From positions 32,574 through 96,573 of the forward strand of contig CAZLUT010000001.1 in the NCBI GenBank assembly GCA_964562805.1: 64,000 nucleotides of DNA, written 5' to 3'. Shown piece by piece: positions 3,153 to 42,386 of this stretch. The translations under genes and the position numbers were made by a program. Source of the stretch: an uncultured bacterium (GTDB taxonomy: Bacteria > Omnitrophota > Omnitrophia > Omnitrophales > CAZLUT01). Each line of letters starts with the position of its first letter. Position 1 is the first letter of the stretch. Below the pieces are notes generated by a model. That model worked only from the letters and a program-made list of their open reading frames with translations, ran no database searches and had not been told where the DNA came from.

Positions 3153-3494
3153 TCAAAGACTCGACTTATCGATAATTGCGGAAAATATTCTTCTCAATTC
3201 TTTAGATTCGATAATTAAATTATCAAAGCTTTCTTTGTAATTGCTATTTGAATTTGATAACAGTTCTAACCAATAACTAGTTTCCTTACATTCTTTTCTA
3301 GTTATTCTCATTCGATGAATGAAGTCTTTCTTACTAACCGCGTCATTTGCCTCTCGGTAGTTAGCTCCCACAGACCCAGAAGAGCGAGTTAACTGGCGAA
3401 TTAGCTCGCTATTAATAGTGCTTTTTGGTATTTGTTGACAAGTGTTTAAGGTTTCTTTTGCAAAATTTAAAGTACGTTCTTCTAAAGCTCTCAT
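3153..3494 (-). CDS. Four-helix-bundle protein (TIGR02436-type, formerly 23S rRNA intervening-sequence protein)
   Basis: Characteristic 4HB/IVS-protein sequence (SGSVGANYREA, RKECKETSYWLELL). Start placed at the internal ATG (3492-3494) instead of the ORF-track start at 3545, which would overlap the neighbouring gene. Confidence 0.65.
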   Translation of the reverse strand: MRALEERTLNFAKETLNTCQQIPKSTINSELIRQLTRSSGSVGANYREANDAVSKKDFIHRMRITRKECKETSYWLELLSNSNSNYKESFDNLIIESKELRRIFSAIIDKSSL

Positions 3495-3499
3495 TGTGT

Positions 3500-5155
3500 T
3501 TATTGAAATCTTGTATTTGTTTGTGCTTTGTGGTTTGGATCCCATTGTTTGTGTTTTGTGTTCTGTGTTTTGTGTTTTTTGAAAAAATCAGCAATCGTTT
3601 CTTGATTCTTAATATTCTCCCCAAACCACCCCCCTGTCATTCCGTCTATTTGAGAGGTGAGCTCTTCGATTCTAAGCCAAGATTCGAGAAGCTTTTTTTG
3701 TTCATGCGTTTTAACCAAAACATCTATCTGAAGGCGTCTTCTTTCATAATAAAGCCGAGTCACTTCAGAGACTAATTCATCTCTAAGCTCTACCATCAAT
3801 TTTTCACGCGAATCAATGCTGGTTTGAGAAGAGGAAAAAAGAAGGTCGCCCAAATCCCAGCTCAAATCAATATCCATATCATAATTCCAATCTTCAGGAC
3901 CAACAATATAAAGATCAGGATCTCTCGTGCCGCCGCGGTCAAGGTCAATGTTGTTACCCCGATTATTACCGACCGAATAGGAAACGGAGGGCAGAAGAGA
4001 CTTCAATCTAGAGAAGATTTGCCAGCTCTTAGTTTTTCCATTGGGTGTATTGGAATAACGAATGGCGGCTTCCTGAACCTCTCTCGCTTTTGGTTCGCTC
4101 GCAATCAGTTGATTTAACAATTTAATCAAATTTGATCCATAATGAAGCTCTTGCCTGATGGGTAAGGGATTTTCAGGTAGAGGAAGAGTGATTTTAACGA
4201 TTCCATCATCGGAACTTACCCAGAGCAGGCGTTTGAAATAAATTAAATCATGTATTTTGCCAAGGCTTTTCTCGGTTTTAAGCCTTTTCCATTCAGAATC
4301 GGCAAATCGATATACTCCCTTTTGTGTTCCGGCTATTAGGCCGGGGGGTGTGGTGAGAAGCTGAGTAATGCTGTCTGTTCGTAAACCTGAAGAGGGAAGC
4401 TTATAAAAGTGAAGTCCGCCGGTTTTACTCCCATAAACTCCGCGACTGGTTCCAACCCACACATTTTTTCCATCAGGACTCACTTCAAACGTCGAAAAAC
4501 TGCCTAAATTTTTTGACTCACTGAATTCTGTGCGATCATTTAACAATTCTGTTTCTTTTGGAATCGCACCGAGTAATTTTTCAAAACTAAGACCGCCATC
4601 TCTTGTTTTCCATAAGCTTCTATCAGTGAGAACAAAATAAATTTTTTTTGAAAGAGTCTTGATAGAAAACGGGATTTCTCCCGAAGGGAAGTGATCATTT
4701 TTTTTGAAAACCAATTGGTTTAAGTTTGCCGAAAACAATCCTTTTGTTGTCCCAAGGAAAATTATTTCCTCTTTAATTTTAAAAGTTTCAAGCCTGCCTT
4801 TTGCCGGAGTGGAATTAAAAATTTGCTTCCAGCGGACACCTAAATCTTCGCTGAGGTAGAGGTGCTTATTTGTTAAAAGAAGCAAATTATTGCCAATAAA
4901 TCCAATTCGCCTCATTTCTTGAGTAGCGGGAAGGCTAAAGACCTGCTTATGAAAATTAGTATTTTGTCGTGCAAGATATAGGTTTTTTGGGCTTAAAATT
5001 GCCAATTCCCCATCTTTGATTGGGAGAAGCTGAAGATAATAAGGCTCCTTTGTTCCCCAAGGGATGGTGGGAAGTAGAGCATTTTCTTGAGCAAAAGCGG
5101 GGAGCATTAAGAGAAAAAGAAAGATGATAAGAGGAAAAATGAAGTTTTTAAGCAT
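3500..5155 (-). CDS. Secreted BNR/Asp-box repeat (Ycf48-like beta-propeller) protein with a C-terminal coiled-coil region
   Basis: N-terminal signal peptide MLKNFIFPLIIFLFLLMLPAFAQE; several SxDxGxxW/F Asp-box repeats (SEDLGVRW, TRDGGLSF, SPDGKNVW, SKTGGLHF); C-terminal tail KHKTQNTKHK is read from the inverted repeat. Confidence 0.5.
   Translation of the reverse strand: MLKNFIFPLIIFLFLLMLPAFAQENALLPTIPWGTKEPYYLQLLPIKDGELAILSPKNLYLARQNTNFHKQVFSLPATQEMRRIGFIGNNLLLLTNKHLYLSEDLGVRWKQIFNSTPAKGRLETFKIKEEIIFLGTTKGLFSANLNQLVFKKNDHFPSGEIPFSIKTLSKKIYFVLTDRSLWKTRDGGLSFEKLLGAIPKETELLNDRTEFSESKNLGSFSTFEVSPDGKNVWVGTSRGVYGSKTGGLHFYKLPSSGLRTDSITQLLTTPPGLIAGTQKGVYRFADSEWKRLKTEKSLGKIHDLIYFKRLLWVSSDDGIVKITLPLPENPLPIRQELHYGSNLIKLLNQLIASEPKAREVQEAAIRYSNTPNGKTKSWQIFSRLKSLLPSVSYSVGNNRGNNIDLDRGGTRDPDLYIVGPEDWNYDMDIDLSWDLGDLLFSSSQTSIDSREKLMVELRDELVSEVTRLYYERRRLQIDVLVKTHEQKKLLESWLRIEELTSQIDGMTGGWFGENIKNQETIADFFKKHKTQNTKHKQWDPNHKAQTNTRFQ
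3548..3579. repeat. Inverted repeat, right arm
   Basis: Perfect 32-nt reverse-complement match to 3099-3130. Confidence 0.8.
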
Positions 5156-5260: not shown

Positions 5261-5360
5261 TCCATCAGGTACTTTTTTACAGTTAAAACATATATATAGG
5301 AAATAGAATAATATATAAGGGAGGGAGATTCTTTTTTATAGGAAAAGAATTTTTTTGCTT

Positions 5361-8300
5361 ATGAGGTTTTTATCAAACAATAAAGCGAGCCGTGCGCTCA
5401 CTATCTATTTTCTTATTTTTTGTTTTCTAGCTACATCAAACGCTGTAGCCAACCCGGCTTTTATTCAAGAGGAAACAATTTCCCCCAAAAAACAAACAAC
5501 AAAGGAAGAATTTTTAAGTGAGCTTAAATTAGTTGAATCGGATTTAACACAAAGCAGAAAAAGAGGCGAAAAAGATATTTTAATTTCTGGATTGGTTGAA
5601 CGCTCGCGAAAAATTGTTGGTGCAAAGGCCGCTAGCCTTGGTGAGGTGACGCCTCCTGAAGAGATTCCGCTGCTACATCCCGCCAACCTAGAAGAAATAA
5701 AAGAGCGACTTGAAAAAGAGCTGGAAGGTTATTTGAAACCAACTTTTTCTATCGCGCCGGATATTCCAGAAACCATATGGCTAGGCCTGTACTCAGGACA
5801 TCTTAGAGCCGTTCTTAATGAATTGCTTAAGAATTCCCGGGAGGCAGGCGCCACGCAAGTAAATTTAAATTTTCAGATGATTGACGGCAAGCTTATCATC
5901 AAAGCCCAAGATAATGGCGAAGGAGTGTCTTATGAATCTTTAAAAAAAGCTTTGCTTAAGGCCGCCCAGGAAGAACGGGTTATTAGAAACGAAGATGGAA
6001 TTCTTGAAGTTCCTTTTCCCCGTATTGCGGATGCAAAGCAAATCTTAACCACGGAAGAAGTTTTGGAGTTTATTAAGGAAAATGAAAAGCTGCTTCCTTT
6101 TATCTCGGGCCTTTCCGTAAAAGGAAGTTTTCGTGGCATGGGCATCGCTGCGAGTTGGCAGATTATTAAGCGTCATGGCGGAACAATGGATTATACGACA
6201 GGTCCCGAAGGAACAACTTTTACCATCCAATCACCGGTTTCGGTTAAAGCCAAGAGCCTTGGGAGTGATTTTGTTATAGATTCAGGAAGATCGTATTCGT
6301 TTAAGGATGTTGAGATCGAACAAAGGCAATATCCGGTCTCTTCTCCCGCATCTGTTGTTTTTCCAACGGTCATATTAGAAATTAATAATAGAGCCTACGA
6401 AGTTGGTGGCGAGAATTTTCTAGTTATCACGCTTGCCAACGGAAAAAAGATTTATTGGGGTGGGCAGCACAACCTTTCTTATTCTTTCTTTTTTGAAAAT
6501 TTTAAAGAAAAGGCCGCTGAGCTTATTGAAGCCGGCGGTGTCCTTTGGTTTCATATTGATAATCATGTTGATCTTGGTTCGTACGAAGAGGCAAATAGAC
6601 GTAGTTTAGACACAGGTGTTTGGCAAAAAGAAATTGAGCATGGATATGCCCATCTTAGTTTTGCCAATTACATGGGTTATCTTTTACAGACTAAGGTGGT
6701 TTCTGATTTGCACCGAGCCAGTTCACTCGAAGAGATTGTTGAAGGAAAATGGGCCATCGATTCTCCTTCGGTTGTAGATTTTGATGTCGATGTAATTTTG
6801 GATAATACAGGGAAAACCCGCCTTGGTCTTTTGGAGAAGGCAAAGCTCTTATCAATTTTTAATCAAGCAGATGTTGTTTTTATGACCAATAGTTCGGAGC
6901 TGAGCGCATTTAATCTGGGTGTGCCTTTACATATTGATCCACATCTAGCCATTTCAACTAATGCGAAATTTATACAAGAACTTGCACTCCAATCTAGCTT
7001 GGTGGCAGGTAAGAGTTTGGGAAAAGAGGAAAAGAAAGAAATTTCTTTTAGTGAGATTAATTGGAATCCATTTCGAAAATATGGTGATTGGGCTGGTTTC
7101 TTCCGGGGGCGAACTATTAATCAAGAGCTAGATGATATACAAGAAAAAGCCATGGCGCACCTCACGATGATGTATGAAACGGCTCTCAAAGAAGCAAAGT
7201 CTTTCGAGATGGAGGAGTTGCTTGAAGTGGCAAAAGATTCTGCTCGAGCAAAGATTGAAGGAATGATAGCTGTCCGGCGAGAGGGGGCCCTGGAAAATCG
7301 GCTGATGGACTTTGTCTTAAGACTTAATGGTTCGGGTGTTACTTTACAAACAAGAGAATTAGTTAAAAATTATCTCAAAGATTTTTGGGATAAGGCATCA
7401 GGGGTTTTGAGTGGCCGCGAGGTTTTTGAGCTAGAGGCTCAAAATGCGATTAGGAAAGCGTCTCGTCTCAAAGTGTTTCGTCCTATCCGAACTATATTGG
7501 TTGCTGAAGATGAGGAAGTTTATTTAAAAGATTACAAGAAGGTATTTGAGCGGCTTGGGAGAGACGATATCGATGTGCTTTATTTTCCAACCAGAAAAAA
7601 AGCAATAACTCATTTAAAAACTTTTGGCAAAGAGGTGGATCTTATCTTCGCAGACCGCTCGATGGTAGATGAAGAGGAATATAAGGAAAGATTGGTAGCT
7701 GGTCTTCCTGCTGATGTGGATGATGGCGGGCTTCTTATTGAAGAAGTTAGGAATAAATTAAACCTAAAAACCCCTGTAGTTTTTGTGAGCGGGTCAAGAT
7801 ATGGCCAAAACGAACTAGATCAATTTGGAAATGCAACTCAATTTTCTAAAGCATATCTGAATCCAGAACATTTGGGACGACTCGTTCAGGAATTGATTAA
7901 AATTCTGCCCGAAATTCCTGAGCCTCCTGATGTCGAAGGACTTATGTCCGCTGATAAGATCAAAACGCATAATGATTATTTGCTAGACCTTTTATCTTTT
8001 CTTGGCTCCTTGGACCGCTCTGAAATAACTACAAAAATTAATGAAAATTTGTCACCAGCATCATGGCAGGCATGGGTAGCGCATGATTTTAAAACCCCAA
8101 TTGGCGTAATTCTGCAGAATGTGCAATTAATTGAAGATTACAAGAAAAGCGATGAAGCTGTACCAATTAAAAATATTAAAAGAATCATAGAAAATTATCA
8201 GAAAATAAAGGATGCGCTGACTGTTATAGACCGGGCGGGTGAACCTATTCGCCCTGAATATTTTGATCGGCTAACTCATACTGGTAGCAAGAAAGATCCT

Positions 8301-19500: not shown

Positions 19501-22500
19501 ATTCTCAAACCTATCCGTGCCCGGCGGCAAGAGTCTTATTAATTTGCTGAAGCAATTTGGAATTTATGAGGATGCTGATACCGGCATTCAGGTGAATGAC
19601 CTTCGCGTGAATGAAATTGTTACTAATGATGAAAAAATCAATCAAATTATCCGTAAAGAAGGCGAGTTTGCTTCCCGTGCGAAGAGCTTGGGAGAAGAAA
19701 CAAAAATTTTCGAAGATTGGCTGGAAATGTGGAGCGAGATTTATGAAAGAAAATTAACTATTAATTTTAAACCGCCTGAATTTGAAGAATCTGGATTTCT
19801 TACTTTAGAAAATAGGCTTGGTAAGATGGCCGCAGAAATTCAGTATCGTTATTCAGTTAGAGACCCGGTGGCTGGCGATCTAATAACAATAATTGATCAA
19901 AGCACAGCAACAGATTACCAGAGAAAGAGAATCATGACTTTGATGCATTTATTTTTATTAGATTATTACCCCAAAGTTCGAACTGTTGAATTTGATGGAC
20001 TTTCTGATCATGGTGAAAGTCTTGCGGAAACATTAAAGCAATTTGGAATTTATTATCCTATTGGCGATAAATTTCAAGTGGTTGGGCGTCGTTTGGATGA
20101 AATCGTTGCTTTTAACGAAAATATCAAACAAATCATCGCGAAAGAAGGTGAATTTGTTTCGCGCGGAAAAAGTTTGGGTAGAGGAATGGAGTTTGTCGAT
20201 CCTAAGTACCTCACCTTGAGCCCAGAATTAAGAAGAACAAAAGATTTTAATTTTAAACTTTTAAATGAATTATCTGAGACAGAGAGAGAAGAATTGATAC
20301 AGCTTATCATGGGATTTCTGGAGGTCAAAGGTAAGATCGGCAGAATAAAAGCCATGCGGCGATTAAGTAAATTTAAGGCCCCACGCTCCTTTGAGGTCGT
20401 GGCCTTCAAGAACAATGAAGCAGTTGGTTATACCAACGCTTATTTTACGGATCAAATTTTTATTCCTAGAGAAGTATATATTACTGATATTTATGTTAAA
20501 GAGGGCGAGGCTTATCGTAGACACCGTATTGGTACAAATCTTTTTAATATTACCAAAGAGCATGCAAGAAACATTGGAGCTCAGGAGCTTATAGTTAGCG
20601 GCATTAGACAAAAATCAGAAGCCCAAGATTTTTGGAAGAAAATAGCTGAACAAAATCCGGATACTAACATCCAATATTATGGGCCTTTAAAGAAGATTTC
20701 TCGGATCGGATTGGATTTAACAAGAAACCTCCCCTCGATACCGGATGCTGAAGGATTGCCGGCTTTTGAGAAAATCGGAGCTTATGTGAACTTTGTCATG
20801 AAATTAGTGTCTGCTATTGGGAAAATTGATCAGAAGCTAACTCTTTATTTTGAAGCGAGCCCCAAGCCGCTTCCCGAGGCATGGGTGGATTGGGCAGGAC
20901 ATACTGTAAAAGAAGATTTGAGCTCTGTAGCTACCTGGCATGATGGGTTTGATACCTTATATTCGGCCGCTGCAAGGAAGAAGGAATTTAAAGAAGATCC
21001 CCGTATTCTTAATTACGTAGACAAATATATTGATTCTTTTAAAAGTTATTTTGCCCCAATCAAGAGGCTAGCTAGGGGGCATCCTTCTGATTATACGGCT
21101 GGCCTTACAAAGAAGGGTGATGAGACAGAGCCGGTTGATCGCACGCAATTGGCACGCTATTTCGCAAGAGATCTTTTTATTAATCATCCTGATGCCGAAA
21201 GCAACTGGCAGTTTTTTCAAGCCGCGGTCAGCAGCGTTGATGAAACTCTCGTCAAATTAAAATCCGCAATCAAAGAACTTGAGGAGGAGGTAGGGGCAAG
21301 AAGCTTGGGCGAAGAGGGAGTTTTGTTTCCTTCCAAAGATTTTTCAAAATACGGGATATCCGAAACTGATTCACGTTTTAACGCTATGATGCGGCCGCAG
21401 CAGATCGCCTTTTTCATGCTAATGAAACGGATGCTTAATCTTCCACCGAGAAGCATGGGCATCTATGAAGCGTCTTTTTCTGATATTTCATCTTTGTTGC
21501 TTGCGACTAATTTAGATAATGTCATCATGGTGGACAGCACTTCTTTTCACGACCCATCAAAACGACCTGATTTTTGGAGAGATAAAAAAGATGGTTTTTT
21601 ATCAAATAAGAAAATTTTCGGCTTTCTCCCAACAGAATTTTTAAAACAATATGGTGTCTATGAGGACGTAGAGCATCCTCTTATGTGGGAACTTAGTGCT
21701 ATTGGAGCAACTAATATTCGCGTTAAAAAGTATCTTAATTATAAAAACGCGTATGTGATTAACTTTTATTGGGCATATCACAATGAGGCCCCTCGCCCTC
21801 GCAAGATAATATTTTTTGAAAATACAAATACTGCGGAAGAATCTAAAAATAGGGACCTTTTATATAAGTTTTATGGCTACTATAAGGATAAAGTGAAGGT
21901 AGCTTTTTACAGAAATTCAGAAGCAATCGCGACTTCATTTCCGTTAACAGAAGCTAAAGCGCACTTTCAAAAATTGCGAGAGATATTCCCTGGCAACACT
22001 TTATTTGTGTCTAACTTTGATTTTGCCTCTTATTACGACGGCTACAAAAACAATAATCTTTTTATGGGACCAACCCCAAGGGAAAACCTGACTTCCGTTC
22101 GAGGCTTTTTAAAAGAGTTTGATGTGCAATATGGTCTGGACCCTGAGAGGGACCCTGAAGAGCTGTATATCAGCACACCGCGTTTAATAGTTGGCCAAAG
22201 CCTTGGAGAAGAGGAGATAGTTCAGCGAGTAATGTCTAATATCGGAGAATCCGAAGAGCCTTTTTACGGCATGCTTCCCGCGTCACTTCTTGAGGAATTG
22301 GCTGAAAGCGAAGGTAAGGACGTTCTAAAACAGCAGATGGAATATTTGATCGGAAACAAGGCGAATCATATTGTTATTCTGTGGGATACAGATATTCCGC
22401 GCTTTGAAAGAAATGAGTGGCTGGATAAATTGGGACTTGGTGCGCTTGGTAGCAAAAAGAATTTTATCACAACTCCTCTAAAAGCAAAGATAGATGAAAA

Positions 22501-22813
22501 GGCGCTTCAGGATCAAATAAAAGAAACTCTAAAAATATTGCTTTCAAGAGGCGTTGAAACTCGTGCAATTGGGCTGCTAAAACCATTTGATGAGCAATTT
22601 AAAGTTGATGCCCATTCATTAAAATCCAAATCACCGCAAGCGCTTCTTCTCCTGCATTACTTAGTGCAGATTGACGGTGATCTTGCGCAAGATCTGTTAA
22701 GAATCTTTTCGATTGATCCCAAGACAGGGGATTATCTGGCAGAACTCTCGAATCATCTCGAACGCCTCTTCCAAGAAGCCCGCGCTGCAGAAGCGGTGCG
22801 TAAAGCAGCGTAG
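13583..22813 (+). CDS. Giant secreted multi-module protein 2 (3076 aa), a mosaic paralogue of protein 1. Contains a receiver-like domain, a GNAT domain, two internal tandem duplications, twelve KSLG-type linkers and a conserved C-terminal module
   Basis: - The ATG overlaps the upstream stop (TAATG at 13581-13585).
- Signal peptide ...LIFCFLTTTIAVASP.
- REC-like domain 17690-18040.
- GNAT motif YRRHRIGTNLF around 20500.
- The C-terminal approximately 200 aa align with the C-terminus of protein 1 (…LHYL[IV]QIDGDL[SA]QDLLRIF…DPKTGD[FY][IL]AEL). Confidence 0.8.
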   Translation: MLSVVSKYKTFLAFIIYPLIFCFLTTTIAVASPISQIKTDTISAEKQTQERDFLEEIRQVAEELAESKEREEEIVSIGEIVEKVRGSEDQRIKAMRKEAIDRTRKVLEVTGKSWVAPSLPAVAGTEHRELSVTGKSLGRTKRHALISQAARDMPSFMKDRAKMVQRLYESIDSEEAKRILLRPDVLPVFLGIKSAYLTYDRDPLIGPLSEKVSEASEEFHDLGLVFSERYVISIDYLFDRFEKEGDFLVKEKIISKDELESFIKSGPTQETMNSIDGLLDQYHGDVPGRTILHGFLMGYPLREIIFAARSEKTWEGFVSEYGLHVVSPGTERINRLLSGWDIGTHFGYLTLSNEPDFEEMMEPSALRVFKTIEGKSLGTDEILVKLKSARRINENAREYGEMTYQEAIEVMKSLPDGLWRVEDKGELLNIFNVILATLDKAEETIFEAGGASLFYIHCTSRLEEVLGRLPQEDREAKRLELLDLVNTYINPVGEISQKAAALIKAVEGSTDRYPSSFDEPDASYDELLPKLISLVKSIHPNEDSRLDPYNIKIKALETIDAIVHSGFISDFREIIKFLLAELKKIDDPRNIRTSLVEAIAGVLISILYKQNNLKYEYGGIDQATNVNWALRRTLGAEGGRGTISLFEAFGSFGDVNKIVKRLSQNFEKATTQKQKEKALKAAVKEIDAYGEFLQNEYEISRVLDLLEFGFDKKLSKDQKLNKALHKISNVKSFREALKDLLDSVTLPDKLSNLGTGLFKVLSSIIQDFTEKALLTDDSKELKTILRNTIQKMEEYQNFLAAKVAREEGLEEEAEGKKRAPPEEEIFRAEAKSMGAAYLMVAIKSEPALAIKENFEIVLEEIHDASPRSAREALEAIPFFIKANPKLATKEVLKNILNRLFLGYWDDEPLKPDSSVYLITPNIFILRSFYAADRKLFNNELFEIVKKSADDSNKDAVDMALPFFASNMFGIDIDFETLRPLELAISEIFALIGKEVFVSEESTKHLESILISLSEQLAVTEDEVERGKIILDTFNKMLELQEFMKLQKARARGTLRAEDEKKEVSEDEIFRETPSLSAEAGAMRPAPRVTGKSLGAAYLIDAIKSEPSLAVEANFKKVLKEIQNPEHKEARKALRAIPFFIKANPKLATKKALRNILMKLFWGYWFYGKPSAVDQPIYLVKPNLYVLRSFYEADRKLFDDELYEIVKKIAHDTQRDIEDVVAAVLPFFISSMFGIDIDFETFKHLERAISQTLEILGNEVFVSEESTRHLRSIIISFSEQLAAIEDEAEQEQIVLDTFGKVLELQDFLKAKKERAKGLELGVEGKERTPPEDEIFREAPRAEAKSLGMEDEIIKVIQEALHVKIERHIRTKLIAEDDEDIQKIYKRAFEQLARDDITVLYFPHRRAAINYLRDYGDEVDLIFADRAMDDRDEIDERIKERLPLDIDDGTLLVKQARSRLNLNIPVIFISSTIYNQDELDQFGNATQLPKQYLDATTLEHLIQKLIQILPELPEPPSVEELTPAERMQAHIQYLRELFEFLGPLKKSTIKVIKKKALQSTTWYSWLSHGFQNELLSIEISMRRARARKERGQTISSDTLRNLKESYEKMERSFVIVDRLTRPYRPEYLAMLTETGSEASPIPHPKLPLYFSKAVFEDHPNEANNRKIFQATAPIIDSTLKKLGEAVDEYVREAGGAPGVTAASLGGIADIISPEEAAPLRMELEEGLIDDKARLNYPIQQILLHQDIQQKNKEIAWLIKVRADHFPILSQHVDELIRFVNDNPDWMPSNGLELLIFRLFAGHSYSDLNRESLAAFDEALPPVVRLLRNFDIKNLVKRGVTTDREIYPLKVSSYFINDASEIRKLGKTAQDIIKRAEAKSLGEETQIFEDWLKAWGDVYGEKLAINFEPAPLGGLGFFGLKDEAGEKVAGIFYSYLNENLIKIGLQSTADNYRRKRLMTLVHLFLLNYHPKVTAVEFSNLSVPGGKSLINLLKQFGIYEDADTGIQVNDLRVNEIVTNDEKINQIIRKEGEFASRAKSLGEETKIFEDWLEMWSEIYERKLTINFKPPEFEESGFLTLENRLGKMAAEIQYRYSVRDPVAGDLITIIDQSTATDYQRKRIMTLMHLFLLDYYPKVRTVEFDGLSDHGESLAETLKQFGIYYPIGDKFQVVGRRLDEIVAFNENIKQIIAKEGEFVSRGKSLGRGMEFVDPKYLTLSPELRRTKDFNFKLLNELSETEREELIQLIMGFLEVKGKIGRIKAMRRLSKFKAPRSFEVVAFKNNEAVGYTNAYFTDQIFIPREVYITDIYVKEGEAYRRHRIGTNLFNITKEHARNIGAQELIVSGIRQKSEAQDFWKKIAEQNPDTNIQYYGPLKKISRIGLDLTRNLPSIPDAEGLPAFEKIGAYVNFVMKLVSAIGKIDQKLTLYFEASPKPLPEAWVDWAGHTVKEDLSSVATWHDGFDTLYSAAARKKEFKEDPRILNYVDKYIDSFKSYFAPIKRLARGHPSDYTAGLTKKGDETEPVDRTQLARYFARDLFINHPDAESNWQFFQAAVSSVDETLVKLKSAIKELEEEVGARSLGEEGVLFPSKDFSKYGISETDSRFNAMMRPQQIAFFMLMKRMLNLPPRSMGIYEASFSDISSLLLATNLDNVIMVDSTSFHDPSKRPDFWRDKKDGFLSNKKIFGFLPTEFLKQYGVYEDVEHPLMWELSAIGATNIRVKKYLNYKNAYVINFYWAYHNEAPRPRKIIFFENTNTAEESKNRDLLYKFYGYYKDKVKVAFYRNSEAIATSFPLTEAKAHFQKLREIFPGNTLFVSNFDFASYYDGYKNNNLFMGPTPRENLTSVRGFLKEFDVQYGLDPERDPEELYISTPRLIVGQSLGEEEIVQRVMSNIGESEEPFYGMLPASLLEELAESEGKDVLKQQMEYLIGNKANHIVILWDTDIPRFERNEWLDKLGLGALGSKKNFITTPLKAKIDEKALQDQIKETLKILLSRGVETRAIGLLKPFDEQFKVDAHSLKSKSPQALLLLHYLVQIDGDLAQDLLRIFSIDPKTGDYLAELSNHLERLFQEARAAEAVRKAA
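16064..17620 (+). repeat. Intragenic tandem duplication in giant gene 2 (two units of about 780 nt, each about 260 aa; roughly 65-70% aa identity by eye)
   Basis: Unit 1 at 16064-16843 (AEAKSMGAAYLMVAIKSEPALA...IPFFIKANPKLATK...FGIDIDFET...) parallels unit 2 at 16844-17620 (VTGKSLGAAYLIDAIKSEPSLA...IPFFIKANPKLATK...FGIDIDFET...). Confidence 0.8.
19199..20164 (+). repeat. Second intragenic tandem duplication in giant gene 2 (two units of about 160 aa)
   Basis: 19199-19678 (AEAKSLGEETQIFEDWLKAW...YRRKRLMTLVHLFLLNYHPKV...LKQFGIY...) parallels 19679-20164 (RAKSLGEETKIFEDWLEMW...YQRKRIMTLMHLFLLDYYPKV...LKQFGIY...). Confidence 0.8.
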
Positions 22814-37314: not shown

Positions 37315-37977
37315 ATGAAACATTTCCATCAAATCATTTTATTAGTTTTAGTAAGTTTACTTCTAATTCCGCAAATTGCCGGAGCCAAAGAATCGACACC
37401 GGGTGACGCACCTGAGCTTGTTATTGCTGATTTTGATTCGGGAAAAAAACCCAATAATGTTGGCGGTGACTTTGGATCTTGGAATTACGCTCCTCGGGAT
37501 GAAACTCAAGGATGTTGGGACTGGTTTGAACCTACCAATTTCAATGACGTTGAAGGCTATAGCGTGATTATGGAGTATGACGTTAAATCTCCTAATCCCG
37601 CGTTTTGCGGTTTATGGATGAAGCTTAAAAATGTAGATGTTTCACCCTATGATGTTTTAAGCCTGTGGCTTAAAGGCGACGAAAAAACAGGATTTACAAC
37701 GCGTTTCAAGATAGAAATGAGAAATAAACGCGGGAAACGTGCCGTTTATACCGTTAGCGGAGTTGATAATACCTGGCAGAATTTCAAAATTCCTTTTAAG
37801 AAAACTCGGGCTATTAATGATTGGAGTCAGATACAAGAAATGACTGTTGTATTTGATGATATTATGGCGACTAAAAAAGTGGGGCAGATTCTTTTAGATC
37901 AAATTAGTTTCAGGAAATATACCCCCGAAGAATTAAAGGCCCAAAAAGAAGCGCTAGCCAAGAACGCTGCCGCATAA
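37315..37977 (+). CDS. Secreted protein, function unknown; paralogous module shared with the next gene
   Basis: Signal peptide; the C-terminal block WQNFKIPFK...DWSQIQEMTVVFDD...ILLDQISF recurs in 37978-39984. Confidence 0.45.
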   Translation: MKHFHQIILLVLVSLLLIPQIAGAKESTPGDAPELVIADFDSGKKPNNVGGDFGSWNYAPRDETQGCWDWFEPTNFNDVEGYSVIMEYDVKSPNPAFCGLWMKLKNVDVSPYDVLSLWLKGDEKTGFTTRFKIEMRNKRGKRAVYTVSGVDNTWQNFKIPFKKTRAINDWSQIQEMTVVFDDIMATKKVGQILLDQISFRKYTPEELKAQKEALAKNAAA

Positions 37978-39984
37978 ATGAAACTTAAGGTTCTCGCTGT
38001 CAGCCTTTTGGCTGTAGCGAATTTAGTTTTTCTCTCAAGTGATATCGAGGCCGGCCAAGCGCCTCAAAAACTTAAAGAGACGCGTTACCAGCCGAGAGTT
38101 TTAAAACAGCCGACGCATCAAAACCGGGTTCTTCTCGTCGACAATTTTAATTATCCCAATATGATGAATTTGCTCGGAGGAGAAACCCAGGGCGATGAAG
38201 AAGAGCCGGGCGGACTCATTCCTTCCTACACACCCAGTGGCCGTTTAACGATGGGGGAAGCCGGACATTCTCTAAAAATGGATTACAACGTGGCGATACC
38301 CATGGCTATTGCCTATTATTGGACACGTCTTGGCCCTGTGGATTCGGAGGTTGTGGGAGCAACTTTTCCGATTGATCTAGAAGGTTTCAACTATCTTTCT
38401 TTTTGGATAAAAACCGACCGAGAATATCCTCGTTTTGCCATCGAATTTCACCAGGATGTCAATAATGACCATATCTTCACTCTTGGAAAGGATACCAATA
38501 ATAAGATTGCTGTTTCCAGCTTTATTCTCTCGCCGGCCGAAAAAATCGCGGGAGGCGCTGCTGAAGTTATCGTTGATGTTAAGGATAAAAGAATTTTAGT
38601 TGAGAGTCGTAAAAAGAAGAAACCTAAAGTTGAAGAAGAGCTAAAACCGCAAGAGGAGGAGAAGGAAGAAGATGTTATTGAGACAGCGTCATTGAGCGAA
38701 ACGCCCGATGAGGCGGGAGAAATGATAGAGGTAATGTCTCCGCCAATTCTTCCAGGAGGAGAGGTTCTAAAAGAAGAAAAAACACAAACCACAGAGCGCA
38801 AAACACAAGAAGTAGCTGCAAAAGAACCGGAGATTCAAGAAGTTAAAGAGCTGGAGGAGAAGAAGGAAGAAACTGCGAAAGAGGCAGAGCCGGAGAAAAT
38901 GGAAGAGAAGCAAGAAAAAGCAGACGCCGAGCCAAAAAAAGAAGAAAAGCCGGAAGATATAAGCGGCAAGGTTAAAGAAGAAGAGAAAACGGTTGAAGCG
39001 ATGAAGAGACAAAAACCTAGCTCATTGTTGCGGCTGAAGAAATATAAGCGACGCTCCAGAAAAAGAGTCACTTTCTTTCACACCGAAGGTCCGGCTACTT
39101 CGCCCGAAAAGGAAGTTAGCAGAAGGGAACTTGAAGTATCCAGACGAAAAGCGCCCAAAAAGAGAGCGGTGGAGATTGAAGTAGGCAGCACGGTTGTTTC
39201 GAGGGCTGTTGTTACAACTGTTTTGGGAAAAGGAACTTCAATTCAGGCGCCTACTCAAATTAGAGCTATGCGTAAAAAAGATTTGTCCTGGCGAAAAGTA
39301 GTGGTGCCTTTAAGCCGATTTCGCGGCATTACGGATTGGTCCAAAATTTTAGAAATGATTTTTCTTTTTAGTGATCAATTAGCTTCTGATCAGGGCATTA
39401 TCTATGTTGACGATATTCTTTTTGGAACGAACTATATGCATCCGAAACCTGAAAAAGTACGTGCACCAAAAATAGAATTTTTAAAATTTGCTAAACTCAA
39501 GGAAAACATTTCTCCCGCGGTTATACGGGGCATTCAGATGGCAAGCCGTAAGGAGGAAAACCAGGCTGTCCACAAAGTATCCGAGGAAGCTCTCATGGCG
39601 CGGGATGTGAGCGGAGATCTCCTTAAAGCTCAACTTAATTCAAGAGAGAAAATAATAAACTTTTTTAAAACAGAAGACGCTGAGAATTTTATTGATGGAG
39701 CGCGTCTCCCCAACACTTTTTTGCTCTATTTTAAGACAAGTGTTACTGACCCCACCTTAGAAACAATTCGTGTTGAAACAAGCCAGGACGAGGGGGTAAC
39801 GTGGAGTATTATTTCAAACCTTTATTCTCACCAAGAGGATGGGGTCTATATCTTTCCGTGGAGGCTTCCATCAACCGGGGCGGGTGAATCAATCTTATTT
39901 CGCTTAAATGCCGCTGATATTTGGGGGAGGGCGGCTGTTATGGGAGAACCTATTAAGTTTCAAGTTGGAGGTGCCAGTGAGTAG
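37978..39984 (+). CDS. Secreted protein with two beta-sandwich-like modules flanking a highly charged E/K-rich low-complexity region
   Basis: Start overlaps the upstream stop (TAAATG); signal peptide; E/K-rich segment about 38600-39180; module DWSKILEMIFLFSDQ...IYVDDILFG. Confidence 0.45.
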   Translation: MKLKVLAVSLLAVANLVFLSSDIEAGQAPQKLKETRYQPRVLKQPTHQNRVLLVDNFNYPNMMNLLGGETQGDEEEPGGLIPSYTPSGRLTMGEAGHSLKMDYNVAIPMAIAYYWTRLGPVDSEVVGATFPIDLEGFNYLSFWIKTDREYPRFAIEFHQDVNNDHIFTLGKDTNNKIAVSSFILSPAEKIAGGAAEVIVDVKDKRILVESRKKKKPKVEEELKPQEEEKEEDVIETASLSETPDEAGEMIEVMSPPILPGGEVLKEEKTQTTERKTQEVAAKEPEIQEVKELEEKKEETAKEAEPEKMEEKQEKADAEPKKEEKPEDISGKVKEEEKTVEAMKRQKPSSLLRLKKYKRRSRKRVTFFHTEGPATSPEKEVSRRELEVSRRKAPKKRAVEIEVGSTVVSRAVVTTVLGKGTSIQAPTQIRAMRKKDLSWRKVVVPLSRFRGITDWSKILEMIFLFSDQLASDQGIIYVDDILFGTNYMHPKPEKVRAPKIEFLKFAKLKENISPAVIRGIQMASRKEENQAVHKVSEEALMARDVSGDLLKAQLNSREKIINFFKTEDAENFIDGARLPNTFLLYFKTSVTDPTLETIRVETSQDEGVTWSIISNLYSHQEDGVYIFPWRLPSTGAGESILFRLNAADIWGRAAVMGEPIKFQVGGASE

Positions 39985-41320
39985 TAATTTAGATCATGCT
40001 TACGATGAATATTTAGCCACTAATGATAAAGCGGCCGTTAAGGCGTTAGGCAATTTTGCCAAGGAACTTCACAACTCTGATATTAGATTCGGCCGTTCTA
40101 CCTTGCCCACCTATTTTAAACCGCATTTTTTGAAAGAAAAGCAGGAGCGTTTAATTAAACACGCGACCGGCGGTATGGTTAAGATCATGAATAAGGTAAT
40201 TGATCTTTATATCAATGAGCCTCATCTAAGAAAACAATTTGAAATTGATCCTGAAATTGAACAGTGGCTTTTAATGGACCCCGGCTACAAGCAATCTGTG
40301 GTATTTTCAAGAATTGACGGTTTTATTGAGGGTGAGGCTTTAAAATTCGTAGAGTTTAACACCGACTCTCCGGCGGGTGCCGCCTACGCGGATACGATTG
40401 GCGGATTGATTACTTCGCAAGAGGAAACACAGCCTTTTTTTAAAGATCACCATCTCAAATGGGATCACCGGGTGAAAAAAATCCTAGAGGGATTGCTGCA
40501 TGCCTATGAAGAGTTTGGAGGTAGTGAGAAACCGCAAATCGGAATTATTGATTGGCGGACCGTAAGAACCCACCCCGAGTTTCAAATTATTAAAACCTAT
40601 TTTGAAGAAAAAGGTTACAAAACGACCGTTGCGGACCCTAGAGAATTAAATTTTAAGCACGGGAAGCTTTATCATGAAAATTTCCGCATCGACCTTGTTT
40701 ATCGAAGAGCTATTTTTAATGAATTGATGGCCAAGATGGACGAAGTGGAAGATTTTCTAAAAGCCTACAAAGAACGTGCGGTATGTGTTGTGAATCCGTT
40801 CCGTTCTAAAATTGCGGGCACAAAGGCAATTCTTTGTTTTTTATCAAATCCTGCTTATGAACGGTTTTTTACTCCAAAAGAAAATGAGCTCAAACGGGAA
40901 TTTATTCCGTGGACACGTCAGCTGATGGATGCTGAGCGTTTTTACGGAGAGAAAAAGGTCTTTTTAATTGATTTTTTGAAGGATGAAAAAGATTTTCTTG
41001 TCTTAAAACCCGGTGATAGTTATGACGCTAAAGATGTTTTTGTCGGACGTGAAACGAGGGAAGAAGACTGGAATTACGCCTTGGATAAGGCCTTGAAAGA
41101 AAATTGGGTATTTCAAGAGTTTATTAATGTTCCTATTATGAGTGTCCCGGAAGTCGTCAATGAACGGCTTGATTTTATCTATAAAAAAGTAAGTATCGGT
41201 CTTTATACAAGCGGCGGAAAATATTCGGGCGCCATGTCGAGACTTTGCGATGATGCAATCATTAGCGTTGCTCACGGGGCCAGTCTTATTCCGTGTGTGG
41301 TAGTGGAAGAAGAGAGGTAG
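39977..41320 (+). CDS. Glutathionylspermidine-synthase-like ATP-grasp amide ligase (YgiC/YjfC family)
   Basis: Pre-ATP-grasp motif KFVEFNTDSPAG (compare EYNADTPT of GspS). GTG start at 39977 with a GGAGG box 6 nt upstream chosen over the ORF-track start at 39908, which overlaps the previous gene. Confidence 0.45.
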   Translation: MSSNLDHAYDEYLATNDKAAVKALGNFAKELHNSDIRFGRSTLPTYFKPHFLKEKQERLIKHATGGMVKIMNKVIDLYINEPHLRKQFEIDPEIEQWLLMDPGYKQSVVFSRIDGFIEGEALKFVEFNTDSPAGAAYADTIGGLITSQEETQPFFKDHHLKWDHRVKKILEGLLHAYEEFGGSEKPQIGIIDWRTVRTHPEFQIIKTYFEEKGYKTTVADPRELNFKHGKLYHENFRIDLVYRRAIFNELMAKMDEVEDFLKAYKERAVCVVNPFRSKIAGTKAILCFLSNPAYERFFTPKENELKREFIPWTRQLMDAERFYGEKKVFLIDFLKDEKDFLVLKPGDSYDAKDVFVGRETREEDWNYALDKALKENWVFQEFINVPIMSVPEVVNERLDFIYKKVSIGLYTSGGKYSGAMSRLCDDAIISVAHGASLIPCVVVEEER

Positions 41321-41834: not shown

Positions 41835-42386
41835 ATGAATTTAGTTCCTAAAAAAATTTTTCTGACAAAAGGTGTCGGAATTGACCGGCACAAGCTTAAT
41901 AGCCTTGAGCTGGCACTTCGCCACGCGCAAATCGCCTGTTATAACATTGTGCGGGTTTCGAGCATTTTACCCCCTCATTGTAATCGGGTTACTCTTGGTA
42001 AAGGACTCAAGTATTTGAAGCCGGGGCAGATCGTTTTTGCGGTCATGGCTGAGTCATCCACAAACGAACCAAACCGTTTGGTAGCAGCCAGCGTAGGGGT
42101 CGCAATACCCGCCAACCGCAGTCAATATGGCTACCTTTCAGAACATCATTCATCCGGTCAAACGCAAGGAAAAGCTGGGGATTATGCCGAAGATATGGCA
42201 GCGGGCATGCTTGCTACGACGCTGGGCGTAAAATTTGATCCCGAGGCCAGTTATGACGAAAAAAAAGAAATTTGGAAAATTAGCGATTCAATCGTCAGAA
42301 CATCGGAAATGACCCAGTCAGCCGAAGGAAATAAAAATGGTCTTTGGACTACTGTTGTTGCCGCCGCCGTTTTTTGCGACTACTAG
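41835..42386 (+). CDS. pdaD: Pyruvoyl-dependent arginine decarboxylase
   Basis: Size about 180 aa; VSSILPP self-cleavage site (Ser-Ser) in the conserved position; overall PvlArgDC-like sequence. Confidence 0.65.
   Translation: MNLVPKKIFLTKGVGIDRHKLNSLELALRHAQIACYNIVRVSSILPPHCNRVTLGKGLKYLKPGQIVFAVMAESSTNEPNRLVAASVGVAIPANRSQYGYLSEHHSSGQTQGKAGDYAEDMAAGMLATTLGVKFDPEASYDEKKEIWKISDSIVRTSEMTQSAEGNKNGLWTTVVAAAVFCDY

Follow-up and report, generated by a model that had tools for sequence, protein, structure and literature searches.

Giant proteins of the phylum Omnitrophota, the Archaeovorins among them, are very long, poorly annotated, exported or membrane-associated, and suspected of being cleaved after translation (10.1101/2023.11.21.568195; PMC10066038; Nielsen & Lui 2026), and a host-dependent or predatory lifestyle has been proposed for the phylum (PMC10066038). 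Information on cleavage points in these proteins was described as lacking in a 2023 preprint (10.1101/2023.11.21.568195). Here we analyse a 64,000-nucleotide stretch of an uncultured member of the Omnitrophota (GenBank assembly GCA_964562805.1, contig CAZLUT010000001.1, positions 32,574 to 96,573; 'the window' throughout), in which two tandem genes encode mosaic proteins, P1 and P2. Each is a string of 11–12 modules, and a short peptide with the core KSLG recurs, judging from sequence comparison, at the borders between them. The genes are as follows:

5355..13583, + strand: P1, mosaic protein; 2742 residues from TTG; the likelier start is the ATG at 5361, which corresponds to the 2740-residue JGI call
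13583..22813, + strand: P2, mosaic protein; 3076 residues; its ATG overlaps the P1 stop

The described Omnitrophota giants reach >10,000–30,000 residues and carry many transmembrane helices, adhesion and glycan-degrading domains, and C39 or S8 peptidase domains. P1 and P2, by contrast, are 2.7–3.1 thousand residues (kaa) long, have a single N-terminal hydrophobic segment, and consist of enzyme and signalling modules with no peptidase. No C39 or S8 peptidase, SecA-like, or carbohydrate-binding or -degrading domain appears in the Pfam results for either protein (P1 and P2 scanned at E<=0.1, modules without an assigned domain at E<=1). On length, transmembrane helices and domain content, we rejected P1 and P2 as giants of the Archaeovorin or Dockerin type. 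We found no mention of a junction, linker or cleavage motif in three papers on giant Omnitrophota proteins and nothing closer in the wider full-text literature; a preliminary description of the window, made from its sequence by a model, had likewise failed to recognise the linker from any described family.

P1 and P2 resemble MARTX toxins, which are very large secreted proteins with several unrelated effector modules, and a cut at KSL↓G would fit the MARTX rule of a leucine in the P1 subsite within disordered interdomain linkers; KSLG here sits in or beside linkers modelled at low confidence. The differences are more extensive. Pfam finds no cysteine protease domain (CPD; Peptidase_C80) in either protein, and Pfam and NCBIfam find no RTX or glycine-rich repeats, self-comparison showing module paralogy only. 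The N-terminus looks like one of Sec type rather than that of a type 1 secretion substrate, and the C-terminal domain is HAD-like. Finally, five to seven positions are conserved in the present motif, and the whole motif changes between lineages, some versions having no Leu. Given no CPD, no RTX repeats and a Sec-like N-terminus, we rejected MARTX membership; the site with Leu at P1 and Gly at P1′ that the preliminary description had called MARTX-like is a resemblance only. The motifs RSEVR, RRSPSG and KPFAPDM of other lineages lack the Leu–small pair.

The likeness to viral polyproteins lies in heterologous units within one open reading frame (ORF), a short lineage-specific consensus peptide at each junction and a putative co-evolution with a protease, whereas P1 and P2 are encoded by chromosomal bacterial genes amid housekeeping genes, with a signal-peptide-like N-terminus and no recognisable protease in the chain. 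Pre-toxin motifs of polymorphic toxins, such as VENN in CdiA, are also short conserved peptides at the border of exchangeable modules. VENN marks one junction per protein, is part of a conserved domain, and exchange there proceeds via DNA homology; P1 and P2, in contrast, have many junctions and no DNA conservation. The P97/P102 adhesin families of Mycoplasma hyopneumoniae are cleaved at S/T-X-F↓X-D/E in disordered regions, as shown by mass spectrometry, with the protease still unidentified in that 2012 paper (PMC3322551). These too are large surface proteins of a genome-reduced bacterium with a recurrent short motif in disordered regions, but their fragments are adhesins rather than enzyme modules, their motif is looser, with one or a few copies in each protein, and cleavage in our case is predicted. 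In function, MARTX toxins, viral polyproteins and these adhesins are the closest analogues. The known kind is the multi-module secreted precursor with inter-module recognition sites; the present case is a class of mosaics whose named members all belong to the Omnitrophota, with at least five motif classes besides that of the window. There is a realistic chance that the P1/P2 system is something more distinctive than this known kind.

Exact KSLG occurs 17 times, 10 in P1 and 7 in P2, against 0.19 expected from composition and a maximum of 3 in 2000 shuffles. The preliminary description had rightly placed the motif far above chance, with an expectation of 0.04 that composition raises to 0.19, and all 22 of the DNA positions it gave were recovered within a few bases. 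Degenerate copies (ASLG at P1 residue 93; GKSW, KSMG, AASLG, ARSLG and GQSLG in P2) bring the total to 23 sites. The shorter string SLG is found 22 times in the two proteins (2.4 expected), 21 of these at junctions. Alignment of 22 sites, the 23 minus GKSW, yields the consensus [VAI]-[TEKA]-[GA]-K-S-L-G-E-[ED]-E, in which S and G are invariant (22/22 each), as is G or A at position −1 (22/22), with L in 21/22 and K in 18/22. Across the long ORFs of all six frames in the 64 kb, the motif is confined to P1 and P2, bar an EKSLGK in ORF 3500–5155(−) that has no flanking consensus. The sites are:

5631..5642 (+): degenerate GAKA-ASLG-EV, P1 residues 93–96
6252..6263 (+): VKA-KSLG-SD, P1 residue 300; low-confidence N-flank of the arginase-fold module
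7011..7022 (+): VAG-KSLG-KE, P1 residue 553; 3 residues beyond the final helix of its module and at the margin of the well-predicted fold
8466..8477 (+): VTA-KSLG-EL, P1 residue 1038
9249..9260 (+): TKG-KSLG-ED, P1 residue 1299
10005..10016 (+): IEG-KSLG-EE, P1 residue 1551
10698..10709 (+): ATG-KSLG-AE, P1 residue 1782
10782..10793 (+): ITG-KSLG-EI, P1 residue 1810
11370..11381 (+): VAG-KSLG-EE, P1 residue 2006; follows a DHp-like module; KPFSPDM at the equivalent site of loci L022 and L006
12225..12236 (+): VAG-KSLG-ED, P1 residue 2291
12954..12965 (+): VTA-KSLG-EG, P1 residue 2534; precedes the C-terminal domain; model confidence (pLDDT) below 50
13916..13927 (+): degenerate VTG-KSWV, P2 residue 112
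13985..13996 (+): VTG-KSLG-RT, P2 residue 135
14705..14716 (+): IEG-KSLG-TD, P2 residue 375
16073..16084 (+): degenerate AEA-KSMG-AA, P2 residue 831
16853..16864 (+): VTG-KSLG-AA, P2 residue 1091
17609..17620 (+): AEA-KSLG-ME, P2 residue 1343
18680..18691 (+): degenerate VTA-ASLG-GI, P2 residue 1700
19208..19219 (+): AEA-KSLG-EE, P2 residue 1876
19682..19693 (+): SRA-KSLG-EE, P2 residue 2034
20168..20179 (+): SRG-KSLG-RG, P2 residue 2196
21299..21310 (+): degenerate VGA-RSLG-EE, P2 residue 2573
22196..22207 (+): degenerate IVG-QSLG-EE, P2 residue 2872; precedes the C-terminal domain

Codons differ at every position of the motif (AAA/AAG for Lys; AGT/AGC/TCG/TCT for Ser; TTG/CTT/TTA/CTC for Leu; all four GGN for Gly), and the conserved entity is therefore the peptide and not a DNA repeat. 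With codons scrambled at the 23 sites, we rejected a DNA repeat or recombination site; the pattern indicates purifying selection on the motif at the peptide level.

To map modules, P1 and P2 were cut at the motif and all pieces were compared; the comparison was repeated on the uncut proteins as a guard against cutting bias. In the uncut P1–P2 comparison, the median distance from an alignment end to a motif or terminus is 3.5 residues; 75% of the ends fall within 15 residues of one, against 13% at random. Judged by where these alignments end, the motif sites mark module borders. Nearly all block boundaries carry the peptide, rather than every one as the preliminary description had it, the exceptions being the inner junctions of two composite modules. 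The mosaic architecture described there is otherwise upheld by the map of domains and paralogs, including the blocks common to both proteins in different order and a common C-terminal module of ~200 residues (50% identity over about 202). The modules are:

5640..6260 (+): P1 module 1, GHKL/HATPase_c ATPase (PF02518, E 2e-7; HATPase_c at P1 149–295)
6261..7019 (+): P1 module 2 (m2), arginase/ureohydrolase-fold domain, P1 303–555; conserved H92, D122, H124, D126, D195 and D199
7020..8474 (+): P1 module 3, composite of 135 residues without assignment, a receiver-like part and a DHp-like part (HDFKTP H-box); paralog of P2 1346–1702
8475..9257 (+): P1 module 4, class I S-adenosylmethionine (SAM) methyltransferase, domain at P1 1126–1231; among solved sequences, protein arginine methyltransferases and PrmA come closest
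9258..10013 (+): P1 module 5 (m5), function not assigned (LLRPDVLPV...GYPLEEI); paralog of P2 138–377; also in P0019/L021, with RSEVR before it
10014..10706 (+): P1 module 6, without assigned function; 28% identical to P1 module 10
10707..10790 (+): P1 module 7, 28-residue spacer between two motifs, P1 1785–1812; shares 76% identity with the last part of the P2 N-terminal region
10791..11378 (+): P1 module 8, DHp-like domain (…RYFARDLFINHPEAEDNW…)
11379..12233 (+): P1 module 9, without assigned function; Lys-rich centre
12234..12962 (+): P1 module 10, without assigned function; paralog of module 6
12963..13580 (+): P1 C-terminal domain, HAD-like fold, end ...ARAA
13994..14713 (+): P2 module 2, paralog of P1 module 5 (47%)
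14714..16081 (+): P2 module 3, 456 residues; weak sub-threshold helical-repeat matches (HEAT/RPN7-type) only
16082..17617 (+): P2 modules 4 and 5, without assigned function; tandem paralogs (59%)
17618..18688 (+): P2 module 6, receiver-like and DHp-like; paralog of P1 module 3 (44–45%)
18689..19216 (+): P2 module 7, without assigned function
19217..20176 (+): P2 modules 8 and 9, tandem paralogs (52%); weak match to M. tuberculosis isocitrate lyase 2, within the C-terminal part of that enzyme
20177..21307 (+): P2 module 10, composite of a GNAT acetyltransferase (P2 2264–2353) and a DHp-like domain, with no motif between
21308..22204 (+): P2 module 11, without assigned function
22205..22810 (+): P2 C-terminal domain, end ...RKAA; paralog of the P1 C-terminal domain (50%)

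Paralogy runs both between and within the proteins. P1 1302–1553 matches P2 138–377 (47% identity); the receiver/DHp-like part of P1 556–1040 (692–1041 in the uncut comparison) matches P2 1346–1702 (uncut, 1348–1703) at 44–45%; and P1 1813–2008 matches the C-terminal half of P2 2199–2575 (uncut, 2386–2575) at 42%. Within P1, 1554–1784 and 2294–2536 are 28% identical; within P2, 834–1093 and 1094–1345 share 59%, and 1879–2036 and 2037–2198 share 52%. The domain guesses of the preliminary description are borne out by Pfam for HATPase_c, SAM methyltransferase and GNAT, whereas the receiver match is weak (E 0.029), as is one to HisKA (E 0.079). Most of the identifiable modules of P1 and P2 are enzyme or signalling domains of cytoplasmic type. 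The 28-residue spacer between two P1 motif copies (AEERAEAMRQEAIDRTRKVLEITGKSL; 10707–10790) is helical, and its P2 counterpart (13850–13927) lies just before GKSW.

Predicted structures place the motif at the edges of folds. An AlphaFold model of P1 281–580, built on an alignment of 17 homologues (mean predicted local distance difference test score (pLDDT) 81.9), has a core at about residues 25–270 with values above 90. The first motif (KAKSLG, query residues 18–23) falls in a segment below 50, and the second (query residues 273–276; P1 residue 553) starts 3 residues past the terminal helix (249–270), in a block with a mean of 58 that drops below 50 from residue 277. In a model that joins the C-terminal domain to the linker before it (pLDDT 73, predicted template modelling score 0.70), residues 1–30, which include TAKSLGE, score below 50. 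All three motif copies modelled are therefore at or just beyond the edge of a confident fold, two of the three in segments with pLDDT <50; burial of the motif inside folded domains, which the preliminary description had named as evidence against its proposal, is not seen in either model. Across all sites, ±10-residue flanks are enriched in disorder-promoting residues (0.61 versus 0.50, a value matched by 0 of 2000 random site sets) and depleted in hydrophobic residues. In these models and profiles, the motif sits in or next to low-confidence, disorder-prone inter-module linkers. The m2 module also occurs as a standalone protein, P0017, whose two termini lie near the motif-defined module limits; because P0017 starts and stops close to these limits, the modules are likely to be autonomous units.

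Both proteins begin with basic residues and a hydrophobic stretch, followed by AVA↓NP or AVA↓SP, as the preliminary description had supposed in calling the two N-termini signal-peptide-like:

5361..5450 (+): P1 signal-peptide-like N-terminus, MRFLSNNKASRALTIYFLIFCFLATSNAVA↓NP, read from sequence
13583..13675 (+): P2 signal-peptide-like N-terminus, MLSVVSKYKTFLAFIIYPLIFCFLTTTIAVA↓SP, read from sequence

This layout looks like that of a Sec signal peptide. Strongly hydrophobic 19-residue windows are N-terminal in P1 and P2, the sole other one being a short stretch of P2 near residue 1216. The genes themselves overlap by TAATG (13581–13585), and the coordinates and lengths previously given for these back-to-back giant ORFs were reproduced. 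Their neighbours are housekeeping genes: an ABC transporter, RlmN, YchF, Mla, IDH, MDH, PurH and MnmE. One could suppose that the linkers are cleavable but that both proteins stay in the cytoplasm or on the membrane of the producer. They would then be a means for a small genome to express ordinary enzymes in polyprotein form, and the hydrophobic helix at the N-terminus would be an anchor and not a signal peptide that is removed. The housekeeping surroundings would suit this idea, as would modules that need ATP, SAM, acetyl-CoA or NAD (HATPase, methyltransferases, GNAT, NUDIX, epimerase, HD, PGM and PLP enzymes across the mosaics). We nevertheless consider it improbable, as the basic, hydrophobic and AxA-like layout read from sequence favours export and recurs in all seven of the relatives read that have an intact N-terminus (P0002, P0010, P0011, P0014, P0019, P0022 and L001).

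The C-terminal domain has the Rossmannoid HAD fold. Its motif I region reads ILWDIDI in P1 and ILWDTDI in P2, and WDSQT and WDDKS in the relatives P0009 and P0008, where HAD motif I is DxDx(T/V); the domain is possibly non-catalytic. As candidates for a protease, we rejected both this domain, on its HAD-like fold, and m2, considered as a protease-like hydrolase, on its arginase fold. A beta-strand-plus-DxD pattern can be seen by eye in the C-terminal domains of other mosaics (LVLAFDSDI in P0014 and P0027, TVFVDAED in P0018 and P0022, and P0011; compare ILWDIDI in the window). Homology of C-terminal domains across lineages, hinted at by eye and by '...AA' ends, had hhalign probabilities of ~1% or less and is not claimed.

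The window matches contigs in JGI sample 3300009008, ENA and NCBI, and P0047, P0048 and P0033 are strain variants nearly identical to the window proteins and uninformative on motif evolution. A search with the C-terminal domain led to P0007–P0009; a scan of GTDB genomes and JGI metagenomes with its alignment gave no confirmed locus. The aligned junction before this domain reads AKSLGE, GQSLGE, GSSLGQ or GASLGK, with SLG invariant and kept in both P0008 and P0009. The source of P0008, locus L001, is an 8.8-kb contig of low coverage with frameshifts. It encodes a mosaic with a signal peptide, a patatin module and modules that differ from those of the window, and its C-terminal domain is 39% identical to the window's and ends ...RKKAA. 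Its junctions read VAGKSLGD, RGKSLGE, EGKSLGE, TGQSLGS and RGASLGK, and a second tandem gene has a signal peptide and AGASLGS. At the divergence of L001, then, the aligned junctions indicate that the motif has been retained despite different modules; a lack of the motif at equivalent junctions of relatives, another observation that the preliminary description had said would count against it, is not borne out: relatives keep a junction motif there. The N-terminal module of the second L001 gene (7150–8835; …VIYIQDAHDSLEVQENIA…VYEEGYEGPVPTD…) is common to P0019 and P0022, two giants whose junction motif is of the RSEVR class, which suggests that modules are exchanged between lineages with different junction motifs.

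Such different motifs emerged through m2, a rare module that occurs almost exclusively within large mosaics; for no other part of P1 could distant homologues be detected. When 1.84 billion representatives were searched exhaustively, just 28 proteins with m2 emerged, most of 1–6 kaa, those that are named all coming from Candidatus Omnitrophota metagenome-assembled genomes. In GTDB species genomes there are 14 m2 loci, with titles of Omnitrophota/Omnitrophica or 'uncultured Planctomycetia/Planctomycetales' bins; such relatives would by themselves place the window in the Omnitrophota. A whole-protein P1 search gave m2-based matches only, among the matches listed, and a homologue search with an m5 alignment gave none. 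Our generalisation across lineages covers about 20 proteins, reached via this one common module. Unbiased 4-mer counts in four of them, controlled by shuffles in which the maximum was 4–5, were:

P0002: KPFA / APDM, 6 copies; full motif KPFAPDMAK
P0024: RRSP, 11 copies; full motif [RK]R[RK]SP[SA]G
P0030: RASP, 13 copies; full motif RASP[ST]G
P0019: RSEV, 7 copies; full motif RSE[VMLI]R

In all four, the spacing of the recurrent 4-mer is domain-sized (150–530 residues). In counts made without a shuffle control, L014 has 19 matches to [AS]SSP[VAL], with SSSP 13 times, and GTDB or metagenome loci carry SSPA (L007), KPFAPDM (L006) or RSExR (L005, L016 and L021). Other domains in these giants include HD, CheR-like and other methyltransferases, an NAD-dependent epimerase, TPR and NUDIX and, by precomputed annotation, LOG, PEP-utilising, PGM, PLP, alpha/beta-hydrolase and sugar-transferase domains. 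P0030, of the RASP[ST]G class, weakly matches protein N-terminal asparagine amidohydrolase at residues 2537–2619 (E 9e-5, short of the curated cutoff); this enzyme acts on newly exposed N-termini.

Equivalent junctions can be compared directly. Within 0–4 residues of the last m2 helix (…LIxELAxxx), measurement places KSLG in the window, KPFAPDM in P0002 and RSE[VM]R in P0018, P0019 and P0022; reading of the flanks adds KPFAPDM in L006 and ASSPV in L014. A few residues further on are SSSPA (L007), RSESR (L005) and STPDA/SPAM/SPVV variants, and no recurrent peptide follows m2 in L004, L008, L009/L012, L011 or L013. The m5-type module is preceded by KSLG in the window and by RSEVR in P0019/L021, and the end of the DHp-like module reads …ELGEEPVAGKSLG in the window versus …ERISAEPKPFSPDM in L022/L006 (EEPVAGKSLG versus AEPKPFSPDM). 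Compared in this way, equivalent junctions of three module families carry lineage-specific peptides. Within a locus the peptide is the same. L022, the locus of P0002, has a second giant gene (1902 residues) directly upstream with a like N-terminus and the same motif, and among the long ORFs of this 29-kb locus [AS]PDM is found in both giants only. Tandem giant genes share a motif in the window, L001 and L022 alike. In these comparisons the junction peptide is constant within a genome and changes from lineage to lineage.

These comparisons bear on the idea that the motif has no function and is either linker sequence carried along as modules were serially duplicated, or a relic of, or guide for, the shuffling of cassettes at the DNA level. 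Several modules are indeed paralogous within and between P1 and P2, and linkers could have been copied along with them. However, the motif flanks non-homologous modules (HATPase, arginase-fold, methyltransferase and GNAT) and is nearly invariant while paralogs stand at 28–59% identity and the flanking linker residues vary. Scrambled codons leave no DNA identity for recombination, L001 keeps the motif with different modules, and the same junctions bear other motifs in other lineages. We regard a functionless linker as very improbable.

The peptide must be read by something acting in trans. Reasoning from sequence and by analogy, we lean, tentatively and at somewhat less than even odds, towards P1 and P2 being Sec-exported multi-enzyme precursors that are cut at genome-specific linker sites by a trans-acting protease. 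The two proteins would be exported via Sec as precursors of 11–12 autonomous modules, and [VAI]-x-[GA]-K-S-L-G-E-[ED] in short exposed linkers would be the site that a dedicated endopeptidase recognises. The gene for this enzyme would lie elsewhere in the genome; supply by the target cell is less probable. The enzyme would cut the precursor into modules, much as happens in MARTX toxins and viral polyproteins. Co-evolution of the site with its protease would account for the other peptides that occupy the same junctions in other lineages. The modules could then be delivered into another cell, a step made plausible because many of them need cytoplasmic cofactors yet appear to be exported and because the phylum is proposed to be host-dependent or predatory (PMC10066038). 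In this scheme we infer export, cleavage, the cut bond, the protease and delivery into another cell. The scissile bond could equally be K↓S or KSL↓G: RSEVR, RRSPSG and KPFAPDM contain no Leu–small pair, and share instead a basic residue with Ser or Ala after it.

Several observations weigh against processing of this kind. First, Pfam detected no peptidase domain in P1 or P2, including their unassigned modules, nor in five further giants that carry a motif, nor among the 35 scanned ORFs of the window with >=150 residues; the preliminary description had also been unable to identify a protease module. Second, the motif is absent from the inner junctions of P1 556–1040 and P2 2199–2575, and the m2-bearing mosaics P0011, P0014, L009/L012 and L013 have no recurrent motif. 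Third, the Sec-type layout of the N-termini was judged by eye. Finally, most motif classes have a Ser (or Ala) in common, which is as compatible with a modified residue as with one at P1′.

This last point leads to the strongest rival, in which the peptide is a recognition site that is never cut and the chain works whole. The invariant Ser could be O-glycosylated or phosphorylated, perhaps as a shield for the linkers that an exported protein of many domains exposes. Alternatively, a chaperone or a component of secretion or a scaffold could use the peptide as a repeated docking site. Ser is present in 22 of 22 sites here, and Ser or Ala stands at the matching place in R-S-E-V-R, RR-S-P-S-G, RA-S-P-S-G, SS-S-P-V and F-[AS]-P-D-M; motif classes rich in Ser, Pro and Ala resemble the sites at which general glycosylation systems of bacteria O-glycosylate linkers. 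Single linkers that hold two or three copies of the motif, 11–27 residues apart (in P0030, L014, P0018, at the P2 N-terminus and around the 28-residue P1 spacer), would also suit an uncut site, as would the Pfam searches of P1, P2, the giants and the window ORFs in which no protease was found. On the other hand, a general sequon should recur, whereas the other signal-peptide-like ORFs of the window hold a single KSLG, without flanking consensus; KPFAPDM copies mostly lack Ser; and there is no obvious reason why 11–12 unrelated enzymes should stay linked. We consider an uncut site rather unlikely, though it has more in its favour than the cytoplasmic or functionless alternatives, and the polyprotein reading plausible.

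More broadly, the Omnitrophota might possess a phylum-wide system of Sec-exported poly-enzyme precursors, in which each lineage has its own 4–7-residue junction code (KSLGE, KPFAPDM, RSEVR, RRSPSG, RASP[ST]G or SSSP[VA]), a co-evolving dedicated protease and delivery of the modules into host or prey cells. We hold this wider proposal to be doubtful at present. If it were true, the polyprotein strategy of viruses would have an equivalent in cells, with batteries of protein-modifying enzymes delivered to host or prey cells, and the junction peptides would be the first map of cleavage points in the large proteins of the Omnitrophota.

The termini of the mosaics have features of their own. Signal-peptide-like N-termini end A-x-A↓[NS]-P in P1 and P2 (5361–5460 and 13583–13685) and with VWANPD or IAWSDPD in the KPFAPDM lineage (N-termini compared: P0002, P0006, P0014 and the upstream gene of L022), and the N-terminus of the mosaics may carry more than a plain Sec signal. 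At the other end, two small residues close nearly every complete mosaic that was read: ARAA, RKAA, KKAA, AKAA, AIAA, LRAA, LKAA, AVAA, TIAA, KSAA, LRSA or LMSA, with P0011 (...ILTSL) as the exception (C-termini of P1 (13569–13580), P2 (22799–22810), L001, P0002, P0003, P0007, P0009, P0014, P0018, P0022, P0027 and the upstream gene of L022). Among 38 window ORFs, an AA end is found only in P1, P2 and ORF 37315–37977 (…NAAA), which is likewise signal-peptide-like. Apolar C-terminal tags are read by ClpX or by PDZ-type tail-specific proteases, and the AA ends of the mosaics are similar; they may be a lead to a processing enzyme.

Elsewhere in the window, three consecutive ORFs at 37315–41320 (220, 668 and 470 residues) have no Pfam match, the first two being signal-peptide-like, and this segment has a GC content of 0.43–0.44 against about 0.40. 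A pyruvoyl-dependent arginine decarboxylase, an enzyme that self-processes at an internal Ser, is encoded at 41835–42386 (PvlArgDC, E 9e-58), and arginine-related enzymes recur in the window. A small gene at ~3153–3494 (−) (L002 7793–8134), annotated as a 23S rRNA intervening-sequence protein (PF05635), lies between RlmN and a BNR/Sortilin-like exported protein, the latter gene being divergent from P1.

Very long and poorly understood proteins are a hallmark of the Omnitrophota, and published work suspects that they are cut. The junction peptide offers a concrete map of module borders, indicating where neo-termini are to be expected and how such proteins can be split for structure prediction, and the motif class is a trait that can be correlated with protease genes across complete genomes. 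If the peptide is instead a modification or docking site, it would represent a new class of linear motif that organises multi-enzyme exported proteins. If processing is confirmed, the mosaics would constitute a new polyprotein system of bacteria that could supply orthogonal protease–site pairs.

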